64,000 nt of DNA from Candidatus Omnitrophota bacterium (GTDB lineage: Bacteria > Omnitrophota > Gorgyraeia > Zapsychrales > Fredricksoniimonadaceae), in NCBI GenBank assembly GCA_903860135.1, contig CAIOPG010000009.1, forward strand, positions 111,805 through 175,804, given 5' to 3'. Positions 9,890 through 42,797 of the stretch are shown piece after piece; the stretch's first letter is position 1; each line of letters opens with the position of its first letter. The notes under the pieces are model-generated. The model ran no database searches, was not told the origin of the DNA, and saw nothing but the letters and a program-made list of their open reading frames with translations. The position numbers were made by a program, and so were the translations under genes.

Positions 9890-10004
9890 AAATGATCCCC
9901 CCTATACCAATTGTTTAATATTGCAGAATAACCCCATCCTATCGGCTTTCAGTTTCACTCTCCGTGTCACTTAAATATGACCATTCAAATTGAACAATCA
10001 AAGT

Positions 10005-21600: not shown

Positions 21601-23081
21601 ATTGAAGAATGCGGATCAATGTTTTCTTTTTCTTTCAATGCAATATGAGGATTAAGTTTGGGTTGATTGACAATACTTTTACGCAACCCCATATCTTCGA
21701 CCATTTTTGAAAAACTGAACACTCTTTCGGCACGTGCGTCACGGTTAAGGCCGTTACTATCCACAAAAAGCATGGGATCCAAATCCCAGCTTAGGCCATA
21801 ACACGCTGTATTTTGCCCAATATCAGATTCAGGAAAAAGTGTAAACCCTGAAATATTTGTGACTTCAGAAATATAGGCCTTATTGCGACGCAAAAAGACA
21901 GCCACTTCATCCAGGTCATTCTTTGTTTCTCCTGGGAAACCGACAATGATATTAACATTTGTACAGATACCCGCATTATGGGACATCCGTAAAACATTCT
22001 CTATTTCACTAGGGGTATAAAATTTCTTCATCCTGGTAAGTATACTTTTGGCTACATGTTCCATGCCATAAATAAGGGTATGACAACCAGCCTTCTTCAT
22101 TTTCTCACACAACCGTTCGGTCATATCCGAACGGATCACCGCATAGCTCACCCAATTAAACTTTAATCCGGAATCAATGATCAGATCACACAAAGATTCC
22201 AGCAAACGTAAATTCCCGTTGCATAACAGGTCATTCCATTCAAAGGCTTTTGTTTTGTTGATCCGGCAATGGTACTCAATTTCACGAAAGGCATGTTCTG
22301 CTGAACGCGACCTGTATTTCGGCCAAAGGATATGATCAATGCAATACGAACACTTATTGATACAGCCGCGGGTTAACAATAAAGGTAAGGGTTTATAGTC
22401 ATTCCCATTATTGTATAATGAAAGATCAAATTCTTCATATGTTGGAAAAGGCAAAAGATCAAGATCAACGCAAGGGATCGCCGGGATAGGTGTGCCACGG
22501 CCTACTTCTTTGGCCGGAAAAATACCAGGTTCAAGTTCAATGCGTTCCCCTTTTTTTATACGTTTGATCAAGGACAAAAAAACCATTTCGCCTTCACCTA
22601 TGACAAAATAGTCTACGAATCCCGGTGTGATCAATTCTCTGGGATGTATAAAATATGTTGCCGCACCACCGAAAACGATAATACGGTTACTATCATACGC
22701 TTTGATATTTTCGGCCAGTTTATTGGCTAAGAAAATACTGACCATATTGACTGAAAAAGCAATGATCTTGACATCAGAGCGAATGACCCAAGCGATAAAA
22801 TCAAGTAACTCGCCGTTGAACTTATCAAATATAATGTCTGCTATTTCCGCTTGATAGAATGAATTGGTACTGTCCGGAGACCAAAGATCCTTAATATTAT
22901 CGACACTTTTGTTAAACAATAAAATATTCAGATCGACCAATTCAACAGAACACTGTTGTTGTTTCAAATATGCCGTTAAATACGCGGGACCTAAGGGGGG
23001 CATCTTTGTAAATAATGGCGGTGGAATGATCAGCAATACATCCTTACCATCAAGATGATAGCGTGAAAGATCCAATGACAT
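21597..23081 (-). CDS. B12-binding (class B) radical SAM enzyme
   Basis: An N-terminal cobalamin-binding-like Rossmann domain is followed by CINKCSYC (CxxxCxxC). Confidence 0.8.
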   Translation of the reverse strand: MSLDLSRYHLDGKDVLLIIPPPLFTKMPPLGPAYLTAYLKQQQCSVELVDLNILLFNKSVDNIKDLWSPDSTNSFYQAEIADIIFDKFNGELLDFIAWVIRSDVKIIAFSVNMVSIFLANKLAENIKAYDSNRIIVFGGAATYFIHPRELITPGFVDYFVIGEGEMVFLSLIKRIKKGERIELEPGIFPAKEVGRGTPIPAIPCVDLDLLPFPTYEEFDLSLYNNGNDYKPLPLLLTRGCINKCSYCIDHILWPKYRSRSAEHAFREIEYHCRINKTKAFEWNDLLCNGNLRLLESLCDLIIDSGLKFNWVSYAVIRSDMTERLCEKMKKAGCHTLIYGMEHVAKSILTRMKKFYTPSEIENVLRMSHNAGICTNVNIIVGFPGETKNDLDEVAVFLRRNKAYISEVTNISGFTLFPESDIGQNTACYGLSWDLDPMLFVDSNGLNRDARAERVFSFSKMVEDMGLRKSIVNQPKLNPHIALKEKENIDPHSSI

Positions 23082-23115
23082 AAATATTCTTTCCTTACAT
23101 AATAGAAAAATTTAT

Positions 23116-24222
23116 CTAACTTTTACAACAGCGGCCACAAACCTTAAGAGGTTCTTCTTTTATCATTTTTCTGAACTGTTGATAGCTCTTTGAATGCCAT
23201 ATGACTTCCAAAGAGTCTTTGCGGATATTGCCAAACACACAGCATGTTAGAAATTGACACGGTAGAATATCGCCATTATGATTGATAAAAACAGAGTGGG
23301 ATATGAATCGGCAATGATTTTTCCGTAGCGGGTTATCGCTATACCAATCACGCATCTGTTCATCCGTCAGATGCGGTTTCATATATACAGGCAAGTCCGC
23401 ATACTGAAGAAGCCGCCTCAAATGAAGAACTTTATTGATAAAACCTTCCGGTAAATTCTTCTCGAGCAAAAAGATTTCCGGCTTTAAATCAAGGCCATTA
23501 ACAATAAAAGGGATCGATCGGGCATATTCAGCTGGAGTCATAAAATTAAATTGTTCTATCTTGATTGAATCAACTCCTATCAAACGTAAATCAACGAATA
23601 AAGACGGTAATGAAGCAATATTTTCAGGCAACGGGATACAGCTGACCATAATACGCATGCCTGTGCGTTTATTCTTGATCAACCGTTTTAAATTTTCTAT
23701 TGTTCGATCAAATGCGCCTGTGATGCCTACAACTTGATCATGAATTTCACGAGTGCCATACAGCGACACGATCAAGATATCCACATATTTCAAAGCAGAT
23801 ATTAAACTATCACCGTGCAGAAGAGATCCGTTGGTCGTCAACATGCATTTAAGACCATTTTGCTTGATGCAAGCTAATATATCATTAAAATCTTTACACA
23901 TAAACGGCTCACCACCGCTAAAATGTACTACCGACTGAAATTTCCTGATACTTCCAATGAAATTCTTAATTGTTAGTAGATCCATACTTTGAATTGGCAC
24001 ACAATCATTTGAACGCTTGAGCGTTGAAACACACATCCGGCACACATAATTGCATTTTAAAGTTATCAGAAAGTTAATAGTTAAGGGGAAGTTTGTCGGT
24101 TGCCCGCTAAGAAAGTTGATCGCTCCGGTAAAAATATTTCTTGGGATAAAGACATAACGGTAGAGTTTATAAATGAGCAGATTAGATAAGAATGAATTAA
24201 ATATCTGATTAAGAAAGTTCAT
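23116..24222 (-). CDS. Radical SAM enzyme with a C-terminal Cys-rich SPASM/twitch-like domain
   Basis: It has CNYVCRMC and FSGGEPFM (SAM glycine-rich motif), plus a C-terminal CQFLTCC ... CGRCC cluster. Confidence 0.75.
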   Translation of the reverse strand: MNFLNQIFNSFLSNLLIYKLYRYVFIPRNIFTGAINFLSGQPTNFPLTINFLITLKCNYVCRMCVSTLKRSNDCVPIQSMDLLTIKNFIGSIRKFQSVVHFSGGEPFMCKDFNDILACIKQNGLKCMLTTNGSLLHGDSLISALKYVDILIVSLYGTREIHDQVVGITGAFDRTIENLKRLIKNKRTGMRIMVSCIPLPENIASLPSLFVDLRLIGVDSIKIEQFNFMTPAEYARSIPFIVNGLDLKPEIFLLEKNLPEGFINKVLHLRRLLQYADLPVYMKPHLTDEQMRDWYSDNPLRKNHCRFISHSVFINHNGDILPCQFLTCCVFGNIRKDSLEVIWHSKSYQQFRKMIKEEPLKVCGRCCKS

Positions 24223-24229
24223 AAAAAGA

Positions 24230-25924
24230 TTACCTGATAATCAGAAAGTTATTCAAAACTAAAACATCCAGAGCGCACTCGTTGAACGAATGTAAGGCAT
24301 CCTGAAATGAGCATACGATAGGTTCTTCATGCCTGTTAAAACTTGTGTTTAATACTGTCGCTACGCCTTTCTTTTGTTCATATTTCTCAAGTATCCTGTA
24401 TATTCTTGGATTATCAGCCATTGACACGATCTGGGGGCGTGCTGTGCCATCAATGTGAGCAGCGGCAGGACATAGATCCTTTAATCTGTCCGTTCCATCA
24501 ACAGCAAAAGTCATAAATTTCAAAGCATACGTCATGTTATCGATACCCTTATAAAAACCTGCCGCCTCCCTATCAAGGCTTATGGGAGCAAACGGCATAA
24601 AAGAAGAACGATCCATTTTTTTGTTTAACCATTCCATGGCGGATACATCATCAGCCCTGTATAGAATAGAACGATTCCCCAGAGATCGCGGACCAAACTC
24701 CATTCGCCCGTTAAAATGACCTACGGTACATCCTTGGGCCAACAAATCCGCTACGCGCGCACACAAAGAGTCTTCTTCCAGAAAAGTAAATGTTACTTTT
24801 TCATTGTCCAGAAATGATCGAATATCAGCATTATCATATTGCGGGCCAAGATAAACATTCCTAAAACAAAAAGGTTCCGGCTTTAGGAATGCCAACCCGG
24901 CACCAACAGCCAACCCACCATCACCCATGTGCGGAAATACGTAAACATTTTCTATTTTTTTAACGTCTTTGATCCGATGATTGAGACTAACATTAGCGGC
25001 AATGCCCCCGGCCAACGCAACCCTGAATATATCTGTTTTGGCAACCCAATATGAAACGAACTTTACTATTTCATCTTCAAAGTTCTTTTGAAAATTAAAG
25101 GCTACGTCTTCTCTGGAATAGCCCTTTAACTGTTTGTACACACCACTTTTCATGGATTCTGGAATGAAATGATTCTTCCAGTTAAAACCTTCGGTCTTTT
25201 TGATAAAGCTTAAACTGGATTTAGCAACAGCCATTATATCTTCATTAAAACGACCAAAAGATGCCAAACTCGTGATCTTACCTTCATGTCTTAACGCCAT
25301 AAACCCGAGAAATTCAGTCAACCTTTGGTAATAAGTACCGATCGCACTAAAACCTGACTGTTCATAAATACGTTTAAGTTCATTGCCATAACCAATATTA
25401 ACCGTCACACTGACACCATCACCCATGGCATCAAGCGTGAACACCAGCGTTTTTTCATTGTTTCCACTCGAATAATAGGCACCTGCCGCATGGGCTTCAT
25501 GATGATCAATGCAATGAACCGGGGCATGAATACCCAAACGACCAAGGCGAAAAGCTATGATCTTGCCTGAAAGGAATGCTTCTATACGCTCAGGGAACCT
25601 CATGTGCCGCAAAGTTACCTGATAAATAATATACAGATTCAATAAAAAACTAAATTGTGATTCTCTTTCTCTTAGACCGCTATGCCACGAAGGTAAAAGA
25701 CGCAGCATACTGGCAGGTGTCATGCGCGATGCCAGCAAAACGTGGTCAACGGTTGACGGGAGAATGCCTGTATGCTGTAAACATGCTTGTATCGATAATA
25801 GGGGAAAGCCACCTTGAAGCTTATGCCTGGTCAACCGTTCCTCATTCACAGCAAAAAGTAATTCATGATCTCTAAAAATACAGGCACCACTATCATGATT
25901 ATCAGAAATGCTTAGTGTGATCAT
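24230..25924 (-). CDS. Carbamoyltransferase (NodU/CmcH/TobZ family)
   Basis: It has an N-terminal Kae1/YgjD-like ASKHA domain (LSISDNHDSGACIF ... VNEERLTRHK) plus a C-terminal carbamoyltransferase domain. The 564-aa length fits. Confidence 0.75.
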   Translation of the reverse strand: MITLSISDNHDSGACIFRDHELLFAVNEERLTRHKLQGGFPLLSIQACLQHTGILPSTVDHVLLASRMTPASMLRLLPSWHSGLRERESQFSFLLNLYIIYQVTLRHMRFPERIEAFLSGKIIAFRLGRLGIHAPVHCIDHHEAHAAGAYYSSGNNEKTLVFTLDAMGDGVSVTVNIGYGNELKRIYEQSGFSAIGTYYQRLTEFLGFMALRHEGKITSLASFGRFNEDIMAVAKSSLSFIKKTEGFNWKNHFIPESMKSGVYKQLKGYSREDVAFNFQKNFEDEIVKFVSYWVAKTDIFRVALAGGIAANVSLNHRIKDVKKIENVYVFPHMGDGGLAVGAGLAFLKPEPFCFRNVYLGPQYDNADIRSFLDNEKVTFTFLEEDSLCARVADLLAQGCTVGHFNGRMEFGPRSLGNRSILYRADDVSAMEWLNKKMDRSSFMPFAPISLDREAAGFYKGIDNMTYALKFMTFAVDGTDRLKDLCPAAAHIDGTARPQIVSMADNPRIYRILEKYEQKKGVATVLNTSFNRHEEPIVCSFQDALHSFNECALDVLVLNNFLIIR

Positions 25925-25943
25925 ACGATCAACTCAAAAAATG

Positions 25944-27458
25944 TTAGGTAGCCGAACGATTAACCAATGAAATTTCTTTGTTACTATTGGATGTCTCAAC
26001 AACAGCACCAAAAGCAGAAAATGCCTTGTTGATTTCGCTAAAAGAAAGTCGTTGCAACTGATAAAGGAACTGTTTGGGGCGAAAATAAAATTCCCGGATC
26101 GCCTTCTTTTGAAGAAGCCTGAGTTTCTCTGCTGTTAATCCAGGCGTCACCCAAATAGGAACCTGTCCCGTAAAAGCAATATATGAAGAATACCTTTGCC
26201 AAACAGAAGTATCCAAAGTTCCATCCGCCCTCACCCCGGTATCAATTTCACCCTTGCTCGATAACTCATGAAACATGGGAGAGCCTGGGTAAGGAACAAA
26301 AATACTGAATTGTGCCATATCCAAAGGTAATTTTTTGGCGAAAGCGATGGTCTGCAGTGAATCCTGGTACGTTTCTCCAGGTAAACCCAGAATAAAAAGA
26401 CCGCCAATAACGATCCGTGTGTGTTTCTTGACCAAGGCAATGCTGTATTCTATATCAGCCAAATTGGTACCTTTATTAACACGTTCTAATAAGCTTTGCA
26501 CGCCGGATTCAATGCCAAAAGACATATCATGACAACCGGCAGACTCCATGGCACGGATCATCTCGGTGTCGATGCAATTAACATGCGCTTCACACCCCCA
26601 ACGGAATTTAAGTTTTGACTCCTTGATCTTATGGCAAAGCTCAAGTGTTCTCTGTTTATCAACCGCGAAGATAGGATCCATGAAGAAAATGTAATTGGTC
26701 TTGTATTGTTCAATAAGCACCTGTATTTCTTCCAAAACCTGGGGAATACTATAATGCCTTCGCCCATGATGCTTTTGTACAGCACAAAAAGCACAGTTAA
26801 ACGGACAGCCTCGCGACGTGAACATATGTTTGGCAACACGTCCCAGGCGATAACTGTAGGGCATATTGGTAATGTTGGGGAAATTGTAAAGTTTGGGATC
26901 AAGCATATCTCTGGCAGGAAGAGGCAATGATGCCAAATCTTTTACAAGAGCACATTCTGTAGGTGGACGATAACAACCATTTAACAAAAGGGATAAAGAA
27001 GGAATGTCTGCCAAACTGCTTTTATCTTCAATCTGTTTGATGATCCTTACAAATACTTCTTCCCCATCGCCATGAACCACACAATCAGCACAGCCACTTC
27101 TCAAGTAAGCTTCTGCGTAGGCTCCTGCGTGTACATTGCCCAATACCACGAAAATACCAGGGCAGTTTTGTTTTACCCATCGACCGATCTCAAAAACAAC
27201 TTCTCCATTGGAAATAAAAGAAGTCAGTCCGATCACATCCGGTTTTGTTTTTACAATAAAGTCTTTTACCATCTCATTAGAAAACTTGGCAGCAAAAGCA
27301 TCCAGAACTTTTACATCATAACCGGATTGTCTGATATATGCCGCTATCGAGAGTAACCCCAGCGGTTCCAGAACAGGCATAAATTGAGAGCCTTTGCCTA
27401 AGAAATTTTGCAAATCATCGGGTGGATTAATCAATAATATCTTTAATGGTTTAATCAT
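25944..27458 (-). CDS. B12-binding (class B) radical SAM enzyme
   Basis: An N-terminal B12-binding-like domain is followed by TSRGCPFNCAFCAV. Confidence 0.8.
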   Translation of the reverse strand: MIKPLKILLINPPDDLQNFLGKGSQFMPVLEPLGLLSIAAYIRQSGYDVKVLDAFAAKFSNEMVKDFIVKTKPDVIGLTSFISNGEVVFEIGRWVKQNCPGIFVVLGNVHAGAYAEAYLRSGCADCVVHGDGEEVFVRIIKQIEDKSSLADIPSLSLLLNGCYRPPTECALVKDLASLPLPARDMLDPKLYNFPNITNMPYSYRLGRVAKHMFTSRGCPFNCAFCAVQKHHGRRHYSIPQVLEEIQVLIEQYKTNYIFFMDPIFAVDKQRTLELCHKIKESKLKFRWGCEAHVNCIDTEMIRAMESAGCHDMSFGIESGVQSLLERVNKGTNLADIEYSIALVKKHTRIVIGGLFILGLPGETYQDSLQTIAFAKKLPLDMAQFSIFVPYPGSPMFHELSSKGEIDTGVRADGTLDTSVWQRYSSYIAFTGQVPIWVTPGLTAEKLRLLQKKAIREFYFRPKQFLYQLQRLSFSEINKAFSAFGAVVETSNSNKEISLVNRSAT

Positions 27459-29391
27459 GCATGATTTCCTTAAGGTTAAAGATCAACGCATCGATCTCTT
27501 CGGCAGTGGTCCATTTGCTCAAACTTATGCGCATAGCCTGCAGGGCCTCATCAAGGGAACGACCCATCGCCAATAAAACACTGCTGGGGATCAAGACGCG
27601 CGAAGAACAAGCCGCTCCTGTAGCAATATAGATCCCGCGCTGATTTAATTGCGTGACAATATCTTTACCACTTCTATTCTTGAAGGAAATATTTATATTA
27701 TTGCAAAGTCTGTTATGGGCAGGACCATTCAATTGTGCACTATCAAAATCTTGCGTTAAACGTGAAATACAGTAATCCCGCAACTGTGCGATTTGACTGA
27801 TGTGTTCTTCCTGCGCGATATCAACAGCTTTCCCAAATCCCGCAATGCCATGGACATTATATGTACCCGAACGTAAATCTTGTTCCTGACCACCCCCATG
27901 CAAAAGCGGTGCCATGGAGATCCCTTTACGAACATATAATGCACCGACACCGCCCGGGCCATAGATTTTATGGGCACTAAGACTGACCATATCCAATTTT
28001 TGTTGTTGAACATTCAATTCAACTTTGGTGAAACTCTGGCACGCATCAACATGAAAGGCTACACCATTCTGGCGGCAAATTTCTCCAATAGCGGCAACAG
28101 GTTCAATGGTCCCAATCTCATTATTGGCATGCATGATCGAAACAAGGATCGTATCTTTCCTTATCAATCGAAGAACTTCGTCAGGATCAATAAAGCCCTC
28201 AGCGTTGACGCCAACGACTGAAATATTAAATCCAAAATTCTTTAACCATACCGCAGGCGCCATAACACTGGGATGTTCTATCGCGGAAATTATAATGTGC
28301 CTTCCCTCGCCTTGATGAGCAAAAGCAAATCCTTTAATGGCAAAATTATTAGATTCAGTACCGCCAGATGTAAAAATAACTTCGTCCGGCTCGGCATTGA
28401 TCCTTTTGGCAATCTCGGTACGCACATCCTCAATAATTTTCTTTCCTTGTATGCCGCGTTCATGCGACGCAGAGGCATTACCAACATACACTTGCTGTAA
28501 ATGCGCCATGACTTTAATAACTTCCGGGTCAAGTTTGGTCGTCGCATTATTATCAAAATAAATCGACGTCGGCACTGTCAATTGCACCTGTTTTCTTGTC
28601 AGTGAATGACGCAAAGAAGAAAATCTTTGTGTATCATGAGCAAAGAACTTATCAGATATATAATTCAAATAACCATATTTCAAGGTACAACAACCACCTT
28701 GTTCCTTAAAAATAACTTTTAACGGCAATCGCAATAAATTAAAGACAAGGCTCATCAGACACGACGGTTGCGTGCTTCTATACTGACTATATAACCCCTT
28801 ACCTAATTCTATGCCCAAACTTTTTAGAAAGACAACCCTGTTTTCCGTAGAATCCTTGTATAAACCTATAAATCTTAATAAAGAAATAATTTTATTATTA
28901 TTTAACGAATGTACGGATTCATCGTAATAATTTGGCGCGACTATCATTATTCCGTAAGTTTTATAAATTTCAGCCAACAATCCTTTTACATCTTTATGCT
29001 GCTCTAAAGCATGGGAATCATAGAAATTGCTTCCATCAAGGACACAGTCAATCCCCTGCGCTTTACAATATTTGATTGTATACATATGCATGGCACACTT
29101 GCAACCCAAACACCAGGAATAAAGGAATTTATATTTTAAATTATCCAATACACACCGTAAAGGGCCGCCTCTACTGGAGGTAATAAATTTTCGTATATCT
29201 ATGATGTGATGTTCAAGCTTATGACCGTATATTCTTTGTAATTGTAGAAAACTTCGAGATGAAAATTTTTCATTGATCATACCCGGGACAAGGTAAGTGA
29301 TCAGGACGAGTTTGTCATATTTATCGACACTCTTAACCACCGTATATGTTGAATCAACACCTCCGGAAAACAATACAACCGCAGTATTCAT
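27451..29391 (-). CDS. Fusion protein: N-terminal PP-loop ATP pyrophosphatase (QueC/TtcA/ThiI-like, SGGxDS) + C-terminal class-V aminotransferase-fold cysteine desulfurase (NifS/IscS-like)
   Basis: The N-terminus has VVLFSGGVDSTY and a CLGCKC cysteine motif. The C-terminal ~380 aa have IFTSGGTESNN, the AHKIYGPGGVGALYVR PLP-lysine region, and a catalytic-Cys-loop-like ATGAACSS. Confidence 0.75.
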   Translation of the reverse strand: MNTAVVLFSGGVDSTYTVVKSVDKYDKLVLITYLVPGMINEKFSSRSFLQLQRIYGHKLEHHIIDIRKFITSSRGGPLRCVLDNLKYKFLYSWCLGCKCAMHMYTIKYCKAQGIDCVLDGSNFYDSHALEQHKDVKGLLAEIYKTYGIMIVAPNYYDESVHSLNNNKIISLLRFIGLYKDSTENRVVFLKSLGIELGKGLYSQYRSTQPSCLMSLVFNLLRLPLKVIFKEQGGCCTLKYGYLNYISDKFFAHDTQRFSSLRHSLTRKQVQLTVPTSIYFDNNATTKLDPEVIKVMAHLQQVYVGNASASHERGIQGKKIIEDVRTEIAKRINAEPDEVIFTSGGTESNNFAIKGFAFAHQGEGRHIIISAIEHPSVMAPAVWLKNFGFNISVVGVNAEGFIDPDEVLRLIRKDTILVSIMHANNEIGTIEPVAAIGEICRQNGVAFHVDACQSFTKVELNVQQQKLDMVSLSAHKIYGPGGVGALYVRKGISMAPLLHGGGQEQDLRSGTYNVHGIAGFGKAVDIAQEEHISQIAQLRDYCISRLTQDFDSAQLNGPAHNRLCNNINISFKNRSGKDIVTQLNQRGIYIATGAACSSRVLIPSSVLLAMGRSLDEALQAMRISLSKWTTAEEIDALIFNLKEIMHD

Positions 29392-29437
29392 ATTGACTCC
29401 CTGTCAATTTGTAAAATACGGCATTTAAGTATGAAAT

Positions 29438-30358
29438 TCACAAAATATTCCTGATAAAATATGTTTTCTTTTTCTCATAATAGATACGCATGGTTATTTC
29501 AGCAATAAGACCCATCAGGATCAACTGCAACCCAATAATCGAAAACATAACAAAAAGAAACAATAATGGACTAACCCATATGCCATTATAAAATACTTTC
29601 CTTATAATAATGATTAAACCAACACAGAAAGAAAGAAATATCAAAGAAATACCGCATCCTCCAAAAATATACATAGGCTTATTCAAATAATTATTAATGA
29701 ATTCTGCGACAAAGAAATCCAGGATCAATCGAAAAACACGCGACAACCCATATTTCGACTTTCCTGCAATACGTTTGCGATGCGACACAGCTATTTCAGC
29801 GACTAACCCACCTTGCCTGGCGACATAAATCACCATAAGGCGATGCATTTCACTATATAAACGAAAACGTTCAAATACAACCTTGCGATAGGCTTTAAGC
29901 GTACACCCCACATCATGCAATTTTATACCGGTGATTTTAGAAATTAATAAATTTGCCAGGTAGGAAGGTACCTTTCGGATAAGGAAGGGGTCTTGTCGGC
30001 TCTTGCGCCAGCCACTCACAACATCAAAACCTTCTTCAAGTTTAGCCAATAAGGATGGTATATCTTTGGGATCATTTTGAAGATCGGCATCAAAGAATAC
30101 CAGAACCTCACCTGAAGCATGATCGATGCCGGCCTGCATCGCTTCTGTCTGGCCAAAATGACGCGTAAATTCTATAACACGAATATGAGAATAATCAGTT
30201 CTAATTTGTTTTAATACCGATAAACTATGATCAACACTCCCATCATCAACATAAATGATCTCATACGGCCCTATCATCTTCAAGGCATTAACGATTTCCT
30301 CTTGCAAGACGGGCAAATTAGCTTCTTCATTATAAACAGGGATAATAATTGAAATCAT
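29438..30358 (-). CDS. GT2 polyprenyl-phosphate sugar synthase (DPM1/ArnC/GtrB-like) with C-terminal TM helices
   Basis: It has IIIPVYNEEANLP and YEIIYVDDGSVDHS, plus a C-terminal hydrophobic pair. Confidence 0.8.
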   Translation of the reverse strand: MISIIIPVYNEEANLPVLQEEIVNALKMIGPYEIIYVDDGSVDHSLSVLKQIRTDYSHIRVIEFTRHFGQTEAMQAGIDHASGEVLVFFDADLQNDPKDIPSLLAKLEEGFDVVSGWRKSRQDPFLIRKVPSYLANLLISKITGIKLHDVGCTLKAYRKVVFERFRLYSEMHRLMVIYVARQGGLVAEIAVSHRKRIAGKSKYGLSRVFRLILDFFVAEFINNYLNKPMYIFGGCGISLIFLSFCVGLIIIIRKVFYNGIWVSPLLFLFVMFSIIGLQLILMGLIAEITMRIYYEKKKTYFIRNIL

Positions 30359-31518
30359 AGTGTGTATACCTTTTCAAGACGCTTCACAAGGTTGCGCCAG
30401 TTATATGTATCCTCCGCTCGTTTTCGTGCAGCCATAGACATTTGATAACGTAGTTCAGGATTAACCGCCAGCTTCAGGATCCCCTTTGCCATTTCACCAG
30501 GGCTTCCTGGGTGAACCAGTAAACCGGCCTCACCCAACATATTTCTGACTTCGCCCACATCACTGGCTACGATCGGCTTTCCAGCTGCCATATACTCAGC
30601 GATCTTCAATGGGCTTTTACAACGCGTGACTTTATTGTCTTCAAAAGGAGCCACACAAATATCAGCCGCAGCAATATATTCAGGAATATCAATATAGGGG
30701 ATAAAATCAGTAAAAAGAACTTTATCCTCAAGACAAAGTTCAATGGCATTTGCACGCAAGGCTTCAAGCTCTGAACCACTGCCGGCGATCATAAGTTTTA
30801 TGGTCAAATTGACATTTTCTTGCTCAATAAGCTTAAAGACCTGTAAAAGGATCTTTACATATTGGCAAGAATGCAACTGGCCATGATAAAAAACAACAAT
30901 GGAATCGCAAAGATCATGCTTCTGGCGGATATTTTCAGCCTTACGGCCGAAATGAAAGCGTGTTAGATCTGCGCCAACGGGGATCAAAACTACTTTTCTT
31001 TCATTAGCTCCCCGCTTGACAGCTAACTTCCTCAATAACTCACTCGATACACTAACACTATCCGCGAGGAAAGGGAGTGTATGTTCCATTAAAAAAAATG
31101 AAAACCATACTAAGATCGATGTGGGTGACCTTTGGGGGATAGCGCATTCAAATATCTTTTCTTCCCTATCATCCCAGTCATAATGAAGTGGTTTGCAGGC
31201 CATCAATGCCGCTAGAATTGCCGGGATCGAAGCGTAAAAATGCGCTTTCTGAAGATGAATGATATCTACTGTACGCGCAAATTTATAAAGCACCGCCGTA
31301 TTCTTGATGAATGACCTTATAGAAATCTTTCTGTTGAGAGGAATAATATAAACACCGCGAATGGTGTCACGGTAATGCATTTTCATAGGAAAGTATGCCA
31401 AAGTAACCGTGTGATCATGATAAACCAGTTCTTCGGCGAATTTCTTAATACGGATCGTCCATGGTTCCATGGGCGAATATAAATCATGAGGATGGATCAT
31501 TAAAACTTTCATCATCAA
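30355..31518 (-). CDS. Glycosyltransferase family 4 (GT-B)
   Basis: The C-terminal GT4 signature EGFGLPLLEAM is present as a variant (SPLKIAEYMAAGKPIVASDVGEV). Confidence 0.75.
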   Translation of the reverse strand: MMMKVLMIHPHDLYSPMEPWTIRIKKFAEELVYHDHTVTLAYFPMKMHYRDTIRGVYIIPLNRKISIRSFIKNTAVLYKFARTVDIIHLQKAHFYASIPAILAALMACKPLHYDWDDREEKIFECAIPQRSPTSILVWFSFFLMEHTLPFLADSVSVSSELLRKLAVKRGANERKVVLIPVGADLTRFHFGRKAENIRQKHDLCDSIVVFYHGQLHSCQYVKILLQVFKLIEQENVNLTIKLMIAGSGSELEALRANAIELCLEDKVLFTDFIPYIDIPEYIAAADICVAPFEDNKVTRCKSPLKIAEYMAAGKPIVASDVGEVRNMLGEAGLLVHPGSPGEMAKGILKLAVNPELRYQMSMAARKRAEDTYNWRNLVKRLEKVYTL

Positions 31519-33158
31519 CCACCTGGAAAAACAATGGTTTTACGGAAGAACTTTATCGTTTGTAAACAACCAGTAAGAAAGAAATGATACCCGGCTAATA
31601 AAAATATTAGCGGGAGAAACAGTAACCGTCTGAAAAATATACGCCGGGAAGCTTTTATGATATGCGTATTATTTTGTAATATTCTCTGGGCATTCAGTGG
31701 ACTTTCTCCGTCATAAATACCGATAAAATTCGTCTGTATACTTAATCCGCGCAAGAATTCGTAGATCTCTTTTATGCGCTGTTTTCTAATGAAAGGCGTA
31801 TTCTTGCCATCTAATGTTTCCCATGCTTCACACGCATCTTTCCCAGGCGGACAAACAATGCTGAATTTCTCGGGGAATATTTCAAGGTCGGTCAAAGCAG
31901 TAATATGGCATGGATTAAGGCTAGACACGGTATCCAGATGATCACGAATTTCTTCCAGATTTTTCTTTGTAAGCTGGAAATCCTGTTCTGTTTCGCCAGG
32001 AAAGCCTATGATCAGATTGATCCATGTATTGATACCGGCTTTTTTTGTGTTTTCTAAAACCACGTTGATATCAGCAAAACAGAATGGTTTCCCCATCATC
32101 TTCAGTACATTGTCAGACAAACTCTCAACACCATAAATGATGGTTGTCATGCCAGCCTGTTTTAATTTACGCAACAAGGCGGGCTTCATGTCTGTCCGAA
32201 CAATGCCCTGGGCCGTCCAATGAATAGTTAAGCCTGCGGCCATAATAAGATCTGCCAATTCGTCGAGGACATTCAGGTTCCCATTAAATAATAAATCATT
32301 ACAACGAAAAGTCTTCTTGCCTAAATGATCGCGCACTGTTTTCATCTCTTCAAAAATATTTTTTGCCGAACGGAAACGAAAACGAGCATCCCACATCCGC
32401 CAATCATTACAAAAAGTACAGCGATTGACACACCCCCGGCTGAATAGAATAGGCATTTCTCCCTGGACATCATACTTCTTTAATGGGAATTTATGCCAGG
32501 CAGGAAATGGGAGTGTATCAAGATTGGAGATACAGGGGGCTTGCTCGATCTTGCCATAATTCCCTGTAACCACAGGAACAATACCCGCACGTTTAACTGG
32601 ACGATTGGCAATACATGCAGAAACTATTTCAAAGAAAGATTCCTCCCCTTCTCCGGCAACGATAAAATCAACAACGCCCTCAGGCAGTAATGATGCCGCA
32701 TGATGGTTGGAGGTCAAAAAACGAAAAGGCATAGGATTTTCATGCAAAAAGCAGCACGAAGAACCGCCAAAAACAATACGGATATTCTGTGCCTTCTCGC
32801 GTAAAGCTTTAGCCATTTCAATCGAAAAAAGAATATTAGCCCCATGGAGCGAAAACCCTACAATCTTAAATTTCTTATCAATAATATTCTGAACGGCTGA
32901 CTGAATAGCCGTCGAAAACTTTTCTTTGATAAATGGGAACATATTTTCTTGAGACCAAAGATGAAAGTTCTCCATCTGCCATAATCGGCGGTCTTCTGTG
33001 CCGGCAGAAGAATACAATGAAATATTTAGATCCATCACATCGCACAAAATGCCTTTATGCTCAAGATACGCGGCAATATAAGCAATGCCGATGGGCGGAA
33101 GACATGTTCCCCACATAGGACAGATCACCAGCAGAACATCTCTGGATAACGGCATCAT
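31515..33158 (-). CDS. B12-binding (class B) radical SAM enzyme
   Basis: It has FSRGCVNRCTFCND plus an N-terminal B12-binding-like domain. Confidence 0.8.
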   Translation of the reverse strand: MMPLSRDVLLVICPMWGTCLPPIGIAYIAAYLEHKGILCDVMDLNISLYSSAGTEDRRLWQMENFHLWSQENMFPFIKEKFSTAIQSAVQNIIDKKFKIVGFSLHGANILFSIEMAKALREKAQNIRIVFGGSSCCFLHENPMPFRFLTSNHHAASLLPEGVVDFIVAGEGEESFFEIVSACIANRPVKRAGIVPVVTGNYGKIEQAPCISNLDTLPFPAWHKFPLKKYDVQGEMPILFSRGCVNRCTFCNDWRMWDARFRFRSAKNIFEEMKTVRDHLGKKTFRCNDLLFNGNLNVLDELADLIMAAGLTIHWTAQGIVRTDMKPALLRKLKQAGMTTIIYGVESLSDNVLKMMGKPFCFADINVVLENTKKAGINTWINLIIGFPGETEQDFQLTKKNLEEIRDHLDTVSSLNPCHITALTDLEIFPEKFSIVCPPGKDACEAWETLDGKNTPFIRKQRIKEIYEFLRGLSIQTNFIGIYDGESPLNAQRILQNNTHIIKASRRIFFRRLLFLPLIFLLAGYHFFLTGCLQTIKFFRKTIVFPGG

Positions 33159-35893
33159 TATTTCACCATTCTGGCTATGCTTTTGAATAAAAACTTCTGA
33201 AAAGGAGATAATGATTTAAGGTGTTGTTTGACGATCATATTCCTGCCGATATCATCACAGCTTTTATAACAACCCGTCTTACAGTTTTCATCATTACCAA
33301 TGAAATTAAAGAAATTATCATCTTTGTTGGAACTTAATGCTTTTTGACGGAATTCACATTGTTGTTGAGAATTCCATATCTCATGAAAAGAATGCTTGTA
33401 TATGTTACCTACAGGCATACGATGCGCTTTTAAACAAAAGTTAACATCCCCATCGGACATGATCCGGCTGAAAACCCATCCCACATAACATGGAGAATCC
33501 GCAAGCAAACCACTATCATATTGAGCATCCTCAGCTCCTGAATCAGAAATTCGACGCATAAAATGCTCAAGGTTACTCACGATGACCCGTAATGTCTTGG
33601 CTTGAATACGACGGCACTGTTCAAGAACAGCTTCGCGCTGGTCTTTATTTAGGATTAAACTATCGGTAGCATCAGGGATCGTATCAACAACAGTAAATTC
33701 AACACACTCGGATCGCGTCTGCTCGGCAAAATCAACCATTTGTTCAACTTCCATAAAATTCAAGTTAGAAATCACATTATAAATCTTTACACGCGGGCCA
33801 CGATGCTTTTTAAGTGAATTAAGCATTGTTAACGTGGACTTTAAACGATAAAAGGTTGCTTCGTCTTTGTTGGGATGGGTCAGTACATACGTTTGTGGCG
33901 TAGCCGCCCATATGCTGACAGTCATCTCGTCCAAACCCATATAAATAAGCCGCCTCACGACGATCTCATTGACAAGGGTAAAATTGGTATTGACACAACA
34001 GTGCATCCCTCTATGTTTGGCATGTCCGAGGATTTGGAGTATATCCGGATGCATAAATGGTTCACCACCACCAGAGAAAAACAACTCACGGGTGCCCAGC
34101 TGAGCCAATTCATCAATAATGCTTTCGGCAAGATATAAGGGGATAGTCTTGTGACGCCGGGCCCCGGTATACTGACGATCACGCAATAACGGGGAATTAC
34201 ACCAACAACTGACACAATTATTATTGCACTTACTGGTTAGATCAATCTGAACGCAATCTGGCCCCTTGAAAGCACGTGAGCCGTGGTATATCCCCAGAAT
34301 ATTAAGTATATTCTTTTTTATTTTCTTTAATATTACTTCCTTCGTACGCCAGAATGTTTTCAAATGAATGCCCATGGCTTTAACTTTGATGCGCACGCGT
34401 GATACAGCGCTTGAAACACCTAGAACACCATGTACACGAATATACACAAACAATCGTCTCAGCATCTTGTAAAGATCTTGGTGCATCCAATGGCCTTGCC
34501 ACTTATTCAAATATTCTTGGAACGAAGATAACTGTCGAGGCCTTGTTTTGTACACATGCGCCAGCCATATCGTATCCGCCGTTCTCTTGGCTTTCTGGAG
34601 ATCAGTAGCACTCATATGTTCGGTCCTGAGCATCGAACGCGCATTGCCGTCGTAATCGTTCAAATTACGCGAAACCACAAAACCTTTTTGCAATAGTTCG
34701 TCGAAATAACTCGTGCCAGGAAAAGCCGTGTTTATCGAAAATTGTAACGAATCAGGATCGAGCGATAATGCCAGGTCAATGGTTTTCTTTACTGTCTGAC
34801 GGGTTTCTCCGGGCAGACCAAAAGAAAATGTCAAATGAGTCTTTATGCCTATGGCTTTTGTAAAACGGATCATTCTTTCTGCCTTGACAATATCCAGTCC
34901 TTTGTTGATATTATCAAGAAGTTGCTGGTCAGCCGATTCGACTCCATATTTGATCGCCTCAAGTCCCGCCGCGCGTAAGGCCAGAAGGATATCTTCATCC
35001 ATGATATCGGCACGCGCCATCATGGCCCAGGGAACATTTAATCCCCGGCGCAGGATTTCTTTTGAGAATTCCATCATTCTCAATTTCCCGATATTAGCTG
35101 TGTCATCGTCGAAGTAAATCGACTTAAATCCCTTTTGACGGACAAGAAATTCCATCTCGTCAACGACATCCTTGATGCTGCGCGTCCGGTATCGACGTGT
35201 GCCATACATCAACTGGGGCCAGACACAGAAAGAGCAATGATAGGGACAGCCTCGTGATGCCCACATCTGCACACTGGGCAACGGTATGCCTCCAGGCGTA
35301 TCATTATATTTATGCATGGGCAAACCATCGCGCGCAGGCCATGGCAGATCATCAAGATGCTCAAGTAATGGACGCACCGGATTGATCATGACATGAGCTT
35401 TATCGCGCCAGATCAACCCTAAAACACCTGTCCCGTCTTTCTTGGTAGAAAGCCTGCGAACAAGTTCAAGCAATGTAATTTCATACTCACCTTGCAGGAC
35501 ATAATTTATACGGGGATTTCTTTCAAGAAAACCAGTGGTACGAATATTTATTTCCGGGCCACATAACGCTACCGGCAAGTCCTTGGGAATACGATTAAGA
35601 ATATGGAGGTCATTGTCGAGAGATGGCGCGGATGTCTCACCTACCAATAGATCCCATCCGCCGGAAACAACCGTTTGGATGAATTTAGCGACAGGCATTT
35701 CATCAGCTAAAGCATCCAGAACTGTAACCTCAAAACCTTGTTGCTTCAAAAGAGCTGCGGCATACGCCATGAAAAAAGGGTATGGCAAATATTTTTTTTC
35801 TTCGGCTGTCTTGATGTGCGGCCAACGAGATCCAGCCCGCACGCCCCAGTAACGCCCTTTTTTCCAAGGGAAGTTGGCCAAAAGGATTTTCAT
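33158..35893 (-). CDS. Double radical-SAM fusion: B12-binding rSAM domain + second rSAM domain with a SPASM-like Cys cluster
   Basis: The N-terminal half has ASRGCPYHCSFCVW. The C-terminal half has LTSKCNNNCVSCWC, FSGGGEPFM and a terminal cysteine cluster. The C-terminal half is homologous to the 23116..24222 protein. Confidence 0.8.
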   Translation of the reverse strand: MKILLANFPWKKGRYWGVRAGSRWPHIKTAEEKKYLPYPFFMAYAAALLKQQGFEVTVLDALADEMPVAKFIQTVVSGGWDLLVGETSAPSLDNDLHILNRIPKDLPVALCGPEINIRTTGFLERNPRINYVLQGEYEITLLELVRRLSTKKDGTGVLGLIWRDKAHVMINPVRPLLEHLDDLPWPARDGLPMHKYNDTPGGIPLPSVQMWASRGCPYHCSFCVWPQLMYGTRRYRTRSIKDVVDEMEFLVRQKGFKSIYFDDDTANIGKLRMMEFSKEILRRGLNVPWAMMARADIMDEDILLALRAAGLEAIKYGVESADQQLLDNINKGLDIVKAERMIRFTKAIGIKTHLTFSFGLPGETRQTVKKTIDLALSLDPDSLQFSINTAFPGTSYFDELLQKGFVVSRNLNDYDGNARSMLRTEHMSATDLQKAKRTADTIWLAHVYKTRPRQLSSFQEYLNKWQGHWMHQDLYKMLRRLFVYIRVHGVLGVSSAVSRVRIKVKAMGIHLKTFWRTKEVILKKIKKNILNILGIYHGSRAFKGPDCVQIDLTSKCNNNCVSCWCNSPLLRDRQYTGARRHKTIPLYLAESIIDELAQLGTRELFFSGGGEPFMHPDILQILGHAKHRGMHCCVNTNFTLVNEIVVRRLIYMGLDEMTVSIWAATPQTYVLTHPNKDEATFYRLKSTLTMLNSLKKHRGPRVKIYNVISNLNFMEVEQMVDFAEQTRSECVEFTVVDTIPDATDSLILNKDQREAVLEQCRRIQAKTLRVIVSNLEHFMRRISDSGAEDAQYDSGLLADSPCYVGWVFSRIMSDGDVNFCLKAHRMPVGNIYKHSFHEIWNSQQQCEFRQKALSSNKDDNFFNFIGNDENCKTGCYKSCDDIGRNMIVKQHLKSLSPFQKFLFKSIARMVK

Positions 35894-35897
35894 AAAC

Positions 35898-36188
35898 TCA
35901 CAGGCCCCTCACTTTTTGATCAACAAGATCCCTGATCTCCTGCTTTAAAGCGTTAGCATATTGTCCGGAACGTTCCATATTGGAAAGGATCCTGGCAAAG
36001 TCATGTCGAATTTCAAATATCAACTGCCCCATGATGGCCAATAGCCTTAATAAAAACCAGCTAATAAAGCTTCCAAAAACCATCAACCAGAAAGATAACA
36101 TCATCGGTGTAAAGAAAAATACGGCCATGAAGATACCTGCCGCTAAAAGGATGTGCGCGAATAATTTGATGTAACGTGTTGTTCTCAT
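35898..36188 (-). CDS. Small two-TM membrane protein
   Basis: Its start and stop abut the flanking genes and it has two hydrophobic helices. Function is unknown. Confidence 0.45.
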   Translation of the reverse strand: MRTTRYIKLFAHILLAAGIFMAVFFFTPMMLSFWLMVFGSFISWFLLRLLAIMGQLIFEIRHDFARILSNMERSGQYANALKQEIRDLVDQKVRGL

Positions 36189-42749: not shown

Positions 42750-42797
42750 AAAAAATAAATAAAATGGTAAAAGATTATATGATGATACAATTAAAAA

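Follow-up and report, generated by a model that had tools for sequence, protein, structure and literature searches.

In the YcfA-YcfC system of Erwinia amylovora (PDB 9kq6/9kq7), the thioamide of 6-thioguanine is formed and YcfA acts on GTP; YcfA adds free L-cysteine and has no Fe-S cluster, and YcfC is a C-S lyase without a persulfide cysteine (PMC12494993). The thioamide synthetase of closthioamide, CtaC, belongs to the AANH enzymes; it has an SGGxDS loop and a tri-Cys [4Fe-4S] site (D77; proven cluster ligands C154, C157 and C284), and converts an amide C=O to C=S with ATP (PMC6772006). The [4Fe-4S]-dependent form of LarE is known from Thermotoga maritima and Methanococcus maripaludis (PDB 8cnz); the proven ligands of LarE-Tm are C92, C95 and C172, and IscS is the direct sulfur donor (PMC9283937).

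The tRNA thiolases TtuA, TtcA, NcsA, ThiI and MnmA work with IscS or NifS, carry RNA-binding modules (THUMP, zinc fingers or a C-terminal barrel) and are not known from glycan loci. A NifS/IscS-type desulfurase is also paired with a PP-loop ATP pyrophosphatase in DndA-DndC and SspA-SspD, the target of which is the DNA backbone. The N-acetyl sugar amidotransferases activate the acetamido carbonyl and replace its O by NH. Like the protein described below, these PP-loop enzymes (WbuX, PseA and LfnA; PDB 8wex) lie in glycan clusters, and the structural paper for 8wex gives their product as a sugar-NC(=NH)CH3 (acetamidino) group; among precedents for a PP-loop enzyme that activates the carbonyl of a sugar amide, they come closest.

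The DNA analyzed (the window) was a stretch of 64,000 nucleotides from a Candidatus Omnitrophota bacterium (contig CAIOPG010000009.1). On its minus strand, at 27451..29391, an uninterrupted ORF of 646 aa, with an ATG start and a GGGAG ribosome-binding site 6 nt 5' of it, encodes a PP-loop (AANH) domain, a flexible linker and a NifS-type cysteine desulfurase. A fusion of these two activities had been proposed in the initial annotation and was borne out by the continuous reading frame, by the Aminotran_5 match given below and by the recurrence of the architecture. The identical protein is found on 5 contigs by cluster count (6 by a separate look-up) from more than one metagenome assembly and nine further clusters share the architecture, so that the fusion is no assembly artefact. 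The linker (residues about 251-276; 28564..28641, minus strand) differs from fusion to fusion both in length and in sequence and has a pLDDT <50; the predicted structure of the whole protein (pTM 0.59) does not define the packing of the domains.

The N-terminal PP-loop / adenine-nucleotide alpha-hydrolase domain (residues 1-250; 28642..29391, minus strand) is YcfA-like. YcfA is its nearest solved relative, with homology detectable in sequence and in fold, and the YcfA-like fold and the linker account for all 273 N-terminal residues. The ATP-binding motif S9-G-G-V-D13-S14 (SGGVDS, residues 9-14; 29350..29367, minus strand) follows the first beta-strand of the Rossmann-like fold, as in the AANH superfamily, and is invariant in 35 family members; of 184 wider relatives, nearly all have it. 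Assignment by HMM was strong for the desulfurase half and reached no further than the PP-loop tip in the N-terminal domain, for which no curated family model attained its threshold in Pfam and NCBIfam scans; the LarE model gave 18.6 bits (cut-off 150), and no TIGR03573 match with the N-terminal zinc-ribbon cysteines of the WbuX-type amidotransferases was obtained. QueC was considered as an identity for the domain and rejected (Pfam, 15.8 bits with a cut-off of 22 and a match confined to residues 3-33; NCBIfam, 19.9 against 378). No RNA-binding module (THUMP, zinc ribbons or C-terminal barrel) was found in Pfam/NCBIfam scans of the fusion protein, which reaches the threshold of no curated tRNA-thiolase model; its N-terminal domain is not an orthologue of TtcA, MnmA, ThiI or QueC, in agreement with the earlier view that the substrate is not tRNA.

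In the CLGCKC motif (residues 94-99), singled out in the initial annotation, C94 and C97 are conserved and C99 is not. The invariant C94-L-G-C97 (29101..29112, minus strand) forms a CxxC of putative [4Fe-4S] ligands, predicted to lie at the N-terminus of helix 92-112 ahead of strand 116-119. A putative third cluster ligand is C211 in a QPSC motif (28759..28761, minus strand); all three cysteines are invariant in the 35 core and 10 fused sequences, and the QxC also occurs in those wider-family members whose alignment extends that far. PP-loop, CxxC and third Cys are spaced as in CtaC (C154, C157 and C284) and comparably to LarE-Tm (C92, C95 and C172), and the offset from PP-loop to CxxC matches in both. 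CtaC was not recovered among the close sequence or structure matches of the domain, and the PDB matches include no CtaC structure. CtaC differs in its carrier-protein-tethered peptide substrates and in its NRPS-like cluster, in which no sulfur-mobilizing enzyme is encoded nearby; LarE, unfused to a desulfurase and encoded in the lar operon, converts pyridinium mononucleotide carboxylates to thiocarboxylates (nickel-pincer cofactor).

YcfA itself has LGEK in place of the CxxC, and the Cys triad that is invariant in the present family is absent from it. Its residues R18 (phosphate-binding), Q129 and F132 (guanine-stacking) are V12, D125 and A128 here, whereas Y128, E134 and Q135 are kept as Y124, E130 and Q131; the residue set that goes with guanine-nucleotide binding and direct L-Cys addition is thus kept only in part in the N-terminal domain. 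The C-S lyase partner of the YcfA type is likewise replaced, YcfC lacking a persulfide cysteine whereas a true desulfurase (C595) is fused in cis here; the nucleotide context of YcfA also contrasts with the glycan context of the fusion. A G233-C234-C235 loop (28687..28695, minus strand) is invariant in 10/10 fusions and is a candidate persulfide relay site. The standalone members mostly have a gap at this loop and none has the Cys-Cys pair. Its low pLDDT suggests that the loop is flexible, and a persulfide may be relayed by Cys234-Cys235.

The C-terminal domain (residues 277-646 and the stop codon; 27451..28563, minus strand) is a group I (NifS/IscS-type) cysteine desulfurase. Pfam Aminotran_5 matches residues 277-636 (281.7 bits, E 1.1e-83), the NifS, IscS and DndA models match residues 277-645 (E 1e-102 to 1e-125), and among PDB entries A. 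fulgidus IscS2 and E. coli IscS match best (E about 1e-85). The class V aminotransferase fold is accompanied by the PLP Schiff-base lysine K475 (SAHK; 27967..27969, minus strand), aligned with the lysine of 4r5f and IscS, by H373 and D449, aligned with the His/Asp contacts of solved IscS/NifS structures, and by the persulfide-forming catalytic cysteine C595 (TGAACSS loop; 27607..27609, minus strand), placed by alignment to IscS/NifS. All four residues are invariant in the fusions, and the possibility raised earlier that the PLP lysine might be lacking is set aside. The C595 loop has a low pLDDT, as expected of a mobile Cys loop. Equivalog cut-offs were missed (NifS TIGR03402, 416.5 against 530.75 bits; IscS TIGR02006, 343.1 against 643.2), and the IscS-subfamily model NF002806 was borderline (303, cut-off 304); this half is of NifS/IscS type and no orthologue of the housekeeping enzymes. 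The DndA model gave 362.1 bits (cut-off 480), the N-terminal half had no DndC match, and no DndB-E-like genes were found among the annotated neighbors.

The same two-domain fusion was found in ten 90%-identity clusters (46-100% identity) of several lineages. The nine further clusters encode proteins of 641-683 aa with 46-71% identity, and fusions also occur in MAGs labeled Omnitrophota, Myxococcales and Planctomycetia. In a sister clade, the PP-loop gene is followed 0.3-0.8 kb downstream by a gene for a SufS-type desulfurase that has both the PLP Lys and the catalytic Cys (14 loci), with or without radical SAM genes. The fusions offer Rosetta-stone support for a functional pairing of PP-loop enzyme and desulfurase, and the same pairing recurs as gene adjacency. 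The family comprises about 250-480 clusters at 50% identity, and all its members are from uncultured organisms.

The glycosyltransferases, AsnB amidotransferase and carbamoyltransferase reported earlier as neighbors were all confirmed. An ArnC/GtrB-like GT2, a polyprenyl-phosphate sugar transferase with C-terminal TM helices (29438..30358, minus strand; 193 bits to the ArnC model, under its cut-off), lies 47 nt upstream of the fusion gene, with a GT1 (30355-31518) next to it on the far side. On the other side, all on the minus strand, are a B12-binding radical SAM enzyme (25944..27458), the gene for which overlaps the fusion gene by 8 nt (ATGATTAA) and is translationally coupled to it, a NodU/CmcH-type carbamoyltransferase (24230..25924), which is a recurrent partner of the PP-loop/desulfurase pair, a radical SAM / SPASM enzyme (23116..24222), a second B12-binding radical SAM enzyme (21597..23081), a GT-C-type membrane glycosyltransferase (PMT_2, ArnT-like; 20092..21600) and an AsnB-family glutamine-dependent amidotransferase with an N-terminal MCGI nucleophile (18196..20085). 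The remainder of the low-GC glycan cluster (30355..44835, no single strand assigned) encodes the GT1, a B12-rSAM enzyme, a 911-aa double radical SAM protein, a 96-aa TM ORF, a Wzt and Wzm ABC exporter, an FAD oxidoreductase, a WecA-like GT4, a GT1, a Wzy_C protein (plus strand) and a GT2. The radical SAM neighbors number five proteins with six radical SAM domains plus SPASM clusters; these enzymes, including the one translationally coupled to the fusion gene, were missing from the earlier account.

Unrelated MAGs repeat the glycan context, with its ArnC-like GT2, GT-C, AsnB, carbamoyltransferase and Wzm/Wzt genes, and envelope-glycan loci, with ArnC-like GT2, GT-C, AsnB, carbamoyltransferase and radical SAM genes, make up most of the well-flanked family loci; the initial annotation, which had suggested a search for the same fusion in other glycan loci, was upheld on this point. 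Homologues of the ArnC-like GT2 adjoin the PP-loop gene in most family loci, in L001-L007 and L070 the family members are flanked by PMT_2 genes, and in L001-3, L006-8, L010-12, L014, L017, L018 and L020 an AsnB homologue is encoded no more than about 3 kb from the PP-loop gene. The carbamoyltransferase recurs in L070, L071 and 7 sister-clade loci, and the adjacency of B12-rSAM and fusion genes is also seen in L071 and L070. Radical SAM/SPASM homologues were found near family members in L008, L013, L014 and L019, and in L070 NifS, TusA and two N-acetyl-sugar amidotransferase homologues are encoded beside another fusion. The glycan context is not universal: L004, L016 and L019 have neither AsnB nor carbamoyltransferase, and the fused gene of L009, on a short contig, adjoins an aconitase-like gene with no obvious glycan locus.

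The reading that we prefer, with a probability of roughly 0.55, is that the fusion protein is a self-contained ATP-dependent O-to-S exchange enzyme, the target of which is the carbonyl of an amide or carbamoyl group in a glycan precursor. Since a desulfurase is fused to an ATP-using relative of the 6-thioguanine thioamide enzyme, sulfur placed on a sugar building block is the most likely outcome. The C-terminal NifS-type domain would take sulfur from L-cysteine via PLP (K475) and keep it as the C595 persulfide, from which it would pass to the N-terminal domain, maybe via the fusion-specific Cys234-Cys235 loop. There C94, C97 and C211 would probably hold a [4Fe-4S] cluster, and the sulfur would probably be bound to its free iron as terminal sulfide. 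The PP-loop domain would adenylate the substrate carbonyl oxygen with ATP, and displacement of AMP by sulfide would turn C=O into C=S. Judged by the surrounding genes, the most likely substrate is a sugar intermediate in the polysaccharide pathway that bears an amide-type carbonyl; candidates are a carboxamide from the neighboring AsnB, which would give a thioamide, and a carbamoyl group from the neighboring carbamoyltransferase, which would give a thiocarbamate. Next, the ArnC-like GT2 would place the modified sugar on polyprenyl phosphate, and the GT-C enzyme would transfer it.

The thioamidation proposed in the initial annotation gains from the kinship with YcfA, from the CxxC...C triad, from the desulfurase pairing in two clades and from the glycan context. 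Several observations weigh against O-to-S exchange on a glycan precursor: YcfA acts on a nucleotide, without persulfide or Fe-S cluster, three of its substrate-binding residues are replaced here, the glycan context is not universal, and the radical SAM enzymes of the cluster also need Fe-S clusters, which gives another reason for a local desulfurase. More tentatively, these loci may make a surface glycan with a thiocarbonyl, installed with in-cis desulfurase sulfur by an unrecognized Fe-S-dependent branch of the YcfA family; the group would be a thioamide (from the AsnB carboxamide), a thiocarbamate (from the carbamoyl group) or a thioacetamide (from an acetamido group). No report of a sulfur-containing polysaccharide of this kind, or of a polysaccharide thiocarbonyl, was found in the literature searched, which also counts against the preferred reading, and these uncultured organisms are not known to make a sulfur-containing glycan.

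That sulfur is inserted, but into something other than a glycan, is considered unlikely. The substrate could then be a free nucleotide or nucleobase, the nucleotide moiety of a nucleotide-sugar, a peptide, or a small-molecule natural product co-processed, like the peptide, by the many radical SAM enzymes. The use of GTP by YcfA, the closest characterized homologue, fits a nucleotide substrate, as does the gene neighborhood, with NUDIX and HAD hydrolases, of a member of the wider family from Anaeromicropila populeti, a cultured organism; however, the guanine-stacking F132 and phosphate-binding R18 of YcfA are Ala and Val here and the core family has no NUDIX partner. A peptide substrate would accord with the weak RiPP C-methyltransferase matches of the B12-rSAM neighbors and the weaker lasso-peptide cyclase match of AsnB, but the RiPP-model matches are far under their cut-offs and no precursor-peptide-like ORF was found in the intergenic gaps of the cluster, the only small product being the 96-aa TM protein. 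The L009 gene, outside an obvious glycan locus, also favors a non-glycan substrate, against which stand the ArnC-like polyprenyl-phosphate GT2, GT-C and AsnB genes as the commonest neighbors across unrelated MAGs.

Less probable still, the desulfurase might mainly feed Fe-S assembly, for the five radical SAM proteins and perhaps for the PP-loop cluster. The PP-loop chemistry would then be free of sulfur, an ATP-dependent amidation or the formation of an amidine or nitrile, as in QueC, ArtA and the N-acetyl-sugar amidotransferases. Against this, the fusion partner is a PP-loop domain and not a NifU-like scaffold or a radical SAM enzyme, the sister-clade PP-loop/SufS pair persists in loci without a radical SAM gene (L031, L042, L052, L061 and L062), and the nearest relative, YcfA, is a thioamide maker. 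The tri-Cys Fe-S clusters known from characterized PP-loop enzymes serve sulfur insertion, as documented for CtaC, LarE and the TtcA/TtuA group. The zinc site of QueC lies in its C-terminal region, in a placement unlike the CxxC...C triad, and QueC matches only residues 1-33 here. A tRNA thiolase (ThiI/MnmA/TtcA/TtuA type)-IscS fusion or a DndA/DndC-like module, present in the glycan cluster by accident, is highly improbable, given the lack of THUMP, PRC-barrel, zinc-ribbon or other RNA-binding domains in the fusion protein, the tRNA-thiolase and DndC models all under threshold (DndA, 362 against 480), the lack of DndB-E-like genes among the annotated neighbors, the glycan-gene synteny conserved across phyla and the translational coupling of the fusion gene to a radical SAM gene of the cluster.

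Natural thioamides are very rare, the known cases being a few peptides, closthioamide, thionucleosides and 6-thioguanine, and each new route to them has been of biochemical and pharmacological interest. The fusion protein is a good experimental lead and, as an enzyme needing only cysteine and ATP, could serve as a compact tool for enzymatic thioamidation if the O-to-S exchange reading is true. That reading would also suggest a derived position for the cluster-less YcfA, as an offshoot from a clade that depends on Fe-S. The glycan would be the first natural thioamidated polysaccharide, C=S modification being not yet known in bacterial glycans, and the new chemical group would alter the metal binding and hydrogen bonding of surface glycans and their resistance to hydrolases and phage depolymerases. 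A function would be defined for an uncharacterized desulfurase-coupled PP-loop family across many uncultured phyla, with a functional handle on those glycan clusters of Omnitrophota, Planctomycetota and Myxococcota MAGs in which radical SAM tailoring is heavy.

The fusion gene (27451-29391, minus strand) was found to be one uninterrupted open reading frame of 646 amino acids, opening with ATG and carrying a GGGAG ribosome-binding site 6 nt 5' of that codon. This bears out the initial annotation, which had described an SGGVDS PP-loop domain joined to a cysteine desulfurase of the NifS/IscS type. The 3' end of the gene overlaps the beginning of the next gene downstream, for a B12-binding radical SAM enzyme, by 8 nt (ATG CAT GAT TAA), which indicates that the two are translationally coupled. 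An identical protein was recorded on 5 contigs (cluster count; a separate look-up gave 6) from more than one metagenome assembly, and the fusion is therefore not an assembly artefact. The closest match to the window protein in the genome collection was from an Omnitrophota MAG (59% identity).

The desulfurase half was assigned with profile HMMs. Pfam Aminotran_5 covered residues 277-636 (E 1.1e-83), and residues 277-645 matched the NifS, IscS and DndA models at E 1e-102 to 1e-125, each under its equivalog cut-off. Alignment to solved IscS and NifS structures placed the cofactor histidine at H373, the aspartate at D449, the PLP lysine at K475 (SAHK) and the mobile-loop cysteine at C595 (TGAACSS). 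Since all four residues are kept, including the lysine on which the earlier proposal depended, this half is predicted from the alignment to be a catalytically intact desulfurase of group I.

Using the full-length protein as query, ten 90%-identity clusters sharing the two-domain architecture were recovered (641-683 aa, 46-100% identity), whose annotation goes no further than "cysteine desulfurase". Within the genome collection, this fusion was present in an Omnitrophota MAG (locus L008, 665 aa), a high-GC Myxococcales MAG (locus L009, 648 aa) and a Planctomycetia-labelled MAG (locus L013, cut by the contig end). The PP-loop, C94, C97, C211, H373, D449, K475 and C595 are invariant among the ten fused proteins, and so is a loop formed by G233-C234-C235; the Cys-Cys pair occurs in none of the standalone members, most of which have a gap there. 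The linker (25-30 residues) varies in length and sequence. In a full-length AF2 model on the ten fused sequences (pLDDT 71, pTM 0.59) scores fell below 50 in the linker and in both the GCC and the C595 loop, which are plausibly mobile elements.

In the N-terminal half (residues 1 to ~250) the SGGVDS motif lies at residues 9-14. The PP-loop assignment of this half held, but no curated family threshold was reached when it was searched alone against Pfam and NCBIfam. The QueC model aligned, sub-threshold, with the first ~33 residues only, and the LarE, ThiI-like and QatC models gave faint sub-threshold matches; assignment as QueC, LarE or QatC was dropped because the curated matches were sub-threshold and confined to the PP-loop tip. 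A database search with the N-half alone returned ~35 clusters at 45-66% identity, all of them standalone proteins (245-315 aa) lacking any functional annotation. Positions invariant in their alignment include SGGxDS, W93-C94-x-G96-C97, C109, D125, Q131, R205 and Q208-P-S-C211. An exhaustive search of 1.84 billion representatives with the family HMM retrieved 21 proteins at E<=1e-30, and the number rose to 254 at E<=1e-10 and to 484 at E<=1e-3; the core family is thus rare, within a modest wider family. All core-family members come from uncultured organisms, and the case made here is therefore a comparative one.

The nearest solved structure to the N-domain is, by a wide margin in model and profile searches, YcfA of Erwinia amylovora. 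Single-sequence phmmer against the PDB returned YcfA as its one match and a weak one (E 4e-4). The AF2 model of the N-domain on the family alignment (pLDDT 89, pTM 0.87) matched YcfA in Foldseek at E 8e-12, versus ~1e-5 for the remaining structures, and the family profile matched the YcfA sequence at E 2e-13; the profile and fold searches make the kinship convincing. Together with the class-V-fold PLP enzyme YcfC, the PP-loop enzyme YcfA builds the thioamide of 6-thioguanine: YcfA adenylates the C6 carbonyl of GTP and then adds free L-cysteine, and YcfC, which is without a persulfide cysteine, cleaves the C-S bond after the YcfA step (PMC12494993). In a pairwise alignment E134-Q135 of YcfA (general base and ATP/substrate aligner) correspond to E130-Q131 of the fusion protein and Y128 to Y124, whereas R18, Q129 and F132, which serve to bind phosphate, handle L-Cys and stack on guanine, are replaced by V12, D125 and A128.

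YcfA also differs in having L-x-x-E in place of C94-x-x-C97. Nearly all of the 184 core and wider-family proteins aligned to the family HMM contain the CxxC, so YcfA looks like a derived member that has lost it, on an alignment comparison that is not tree-based. Of the CLGCKC motif pointed out in the initial annotation, C94 and C97 are invariant, but C99 is not conserved. C211 (QPSC) is invariant wherever the family alignment extends that far. In one fused member C109 is replaced by Ala, and the wider family varies at this position, which makes C109 an unlikely cluster ligand. In the AF2 model of the N-domain the CxxC lies at the N-terminus of helix 92-112, ahead of strand 116-119, which we take to be the equivalent position in TtcA/TtuA-type enzymes. 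The layout of the fusion protein (D13 of the PP-loop, then C94/C97 at +81 and C211 at +114) is comparable to that of CtaC, the closthioamide thioamide synthetase (D77, C154/C157, C284), in which the three cysteines are the [4Fe-4S] ligands (PMC6772006). It is likewise comparable to that of Thermotoga maritima LarE (SGGXDS, C92/C95, C172), which holds a transferable sulfide on its cluster and to which E. coli IscS gives sulfane sulfur directly (PMC9283937).

A sister clade of PP-loop genes (24-30% identity, WCxGCK...QPKC) was found at 14 loci (L022, L031, L033, L036, L039, L042, L043, L046, L050, L052, L053, L056, L061 and L062) with a SufS/CsdA-type gene 0.3-0.8 kb downstream; in the full-flank loci the PP-loop gene lies at ~10001-10700. 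The desulfurase belongs to group II, has an RxGxHC loop and keeps both its PLP lysine and its catalytic cysteine. Long fusions in the high-GC sister loci (673 aa in L033, 1061 aa in L056, and those of L046 and L022) were discarded as spurious upstream ORF extensions of ~250-aa proteins. A NodU-type carbamoyltransferase is often near the pair, and L042 also encodes an LPG_synthase_TM protein and a TPR protein. The pair looks like a second uncharacterised desulfurase-coupled system. Pairing in two clades with two desulfurase types shows the PP-loop family to be coupled to a true persulfide-forming desulfurase, in which it differs from YcfA-YcfC.

The fusion gene lies in a unidirectional low-GC block at ~18.2-44.8 kb (36-46% GC, against ~50-53% in the flanks). 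The low GC (18000-46000) fits either horizontal acquisition or the compositional bias that surface-glycan loci usually show. The glycosyltransferases, AsnB and carbamoyltransferase reported earlier were all present. The block begins with AsnB (MCGI glutaminase nucleophile), a PMT_2 GT-C glycosyltransferase, a B12-rSAM gene (21597-23081), an rSAM-SPASM gene (23116-24222), a NodU-type carbamoyltransferase, a second B12-rSAM gene (25944-27458) and the fusion gene. These are followed by an ArnC-like GT2 with C-terminal TM helices, a GT1, a third B12-rSAM gene (31515-33158), a 911-aa double radical SAM protein (33158-35893, minus strand) and a 96-aa TM protein, and then by Wzt, Wzm, an FAD oxidoreductase, a WecA-like GT4, a GT1, a Wzy_C protein and a GT2. 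The 911-aa protein, an unusual two-enzyme fusion within a glycan cluster, has a B12-binding HpnJ-like N-half (242 bits to the HpnJ model, under its cut-off) and a SPASM-domain radical SAM C-half. Five radical SAM genes with six radical SAM domains thus stand in one polysaccharide cluster (21597-35893), which implies extensive radical tailoring of a sugar, for example C-methylation, dehydration or ring contraction. In the 776-aa Wzt-type ABC ATPase (36188-38518, minus strand) the ATPase domain (~250 aa) is followed by a charged, repeat-like coiled-coil (QEE/RN-rich) and a C-terminal region of ~400 aa without a Pfam match, which may be a glycan-terminus-binding domain. The flanks hold ordinary chromosomal genes (SecA-like, an HlyD/OEP efflux system, RecN-like and PFK). 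A 717-aa ORF without a Pfam match (2333-4486, minus strand) lies between the SecA-like gene and the efflux operon, and an LplT/Aas-like triple fusion for lysophospholipid recycling (MFS transporter, acyltransferase and AMP-binding enzyme; 1152 aa; 14277-17735, minus strand) lies directly outside the low-GC block.

Similar neighbourhoods were seen around family members in unrelated MAGs. An ArnC-like GT2 and AsnB lie within ~3 kb of the PP-loop gene in L001-3, L006-7, L010-12, L014, L017 and L018; AsnB adjoins it in L020 and, beside a fused gene, in L008. Genes flanking the PP-loop gene in L001-7, L008, L014, L016, L019 and L070 include those for GT-C and radical SAM enzymes. A carbamoyltransferase is found within ~3 kb in all three fused loci that have good flanks (the window, L070 and L071) and in 7 of 9 well-flanked sister-clade loci, and five of these sister-clade loci have no radical SAM gene. 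Exceptions are L004, L016 and L019, with neither AsnB nor carbamoyltransferase, and L009, where on a 6.9-kb contig the fused gene adjoins an aconitase-like gene (identified by eye, no HMM). The L070 fusion is 66% identical to that of the window. A few kb from it (L070:1126-4940) lies an operon of NifS, a WbuX-family N-acetyl-sugar amidotransferase (203.7 bits, cut-off 203.2), a TusA/YedF-like sulfur carrier and a second WbuX-like protein. WbuX enzymes are normally paired with HisH/HisF-like ammonia donors. The combination with NifS and TusA suggests that the acetamido carbonyl receives sulfur rather than nitrogen, giving a thioacetamido sugar.

A divergent operon lies beside the core PP-loop gene in L001 (5706-9753): DUF5989, a 52-aa TM protein, a second PP-loop paralogue (wider family, DUF7411-like; it has the CxxC and scores 70.9 bits against the family HMM), a member of the FGE-sulfatase family and a multi-pass membrane protein of 577 aa. 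Just past this operon comes a complete suf operon (SufCBD-SufS-NifU). The arrangement is repeated in L002, L003, L006 and L007, and a matching 270-aa PP-loop ORF is present in L010. In the cultured Anaeromicropila populeti (L059:9992-11917) a wider-family PP-loop protein (DUF7411; ThiI and QueC-like matches) precedes a NUDIX hydrolase and a HAD phosphatase, a context that resembles thiopurine/thionucleotide pathways, unlike the glycan contexts.

This NUDIX/HAD context, the nucleotide substrate of YcfA and weak RiPP-type matches of the radical SAM neighbours would fit sulfur insertion into a nucleotide, a peptide or a small molecule. Against such a substrate, which we consider unlikely, the nucleotide-binding residues of YcfA are lost here and the glycan synteny is conserved; a search of the intergenic gaps of the cluster for small precursor-like ORFs yielded only the 96-aa TM protein, so that no peptide precursor was found. 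The desulfurase might instead serve only Fe-S assembly for the radical SAM enzymes, with the PP-loop domain performing nitrogen chemistry. This is improbable, because the desulfurase is fused to the PP-loop domain, PP-loop/SufS pairs also occur without radical SAM genes and the tri-Cys motif is characteristic of sulfur insertases. Thiolation of tRNA or DNA is very improbable: as the initial annotation had supposed, the N-half is not an intact tRNA-modifying enzyme, with no RNA-binding domain (Pfam, NCBIfam) and no curated model at threshold, and no dnd genes lie nearby in the window.

Thiolation or thioamidation of a sugar, as first proposed, is supported as a well-founded hypothesis. We infer that C595 of the NifS domain would form a persulfide, and that its sulfur, perhaps relayed by C234/C235, would reach the free iron of a putative [4Fe-4S] cluster on C94, C97 and C211. 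The PP-loop domain would adenylate the carbonyl oxygen of the substrate, and sulfide would displace AMP to give C=S. The recurrent amide-forming neighbours provide candidate substrates: a sugar carboxamide made by AsnB, which would become a thioamide, or the carbamoyl group from the carbamoyltransferase, which would become a thiocarbamate. The WbuX, NifS and TusA genes of L070 add the thioacetamido sugar as a third option. A LarE-like conversion of carboxylate to thiocarboxylate may be an alternative. In the Arn and Gtr pathways a monosaccharide is carried on polyprenyl phosphate and added to a glycan outside the membrane. By analogy, the pair of ArnC-like GT2 and GT-C suggests that the modified monosaccharide would be carried on polyprenyl phosphate and joined to the glycan beyond the cytoplasmic membrane.

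Nothing relevant emerged from literature searches on polysaccharides with thioamides or thio-sugars, or on fusions of a PP-loop domain with a desulfurase within glycan clusters. Systems in which an AANH sulfur insertase works with a cysteine desulfurase are already known. New here are the family, an uncharacterised branch of the YcfA lineage with Fe-S-type cysteines, its covalent joining to NifS together with a Cys-Cys loop specific to the fusions, and its conserved place in envelope-glycan loci where radical SAM tailoring enzymes abound; the product that this implies, a sugar bearing a thiocarbonyl, would be new as well, with no precedent in the literature searched.
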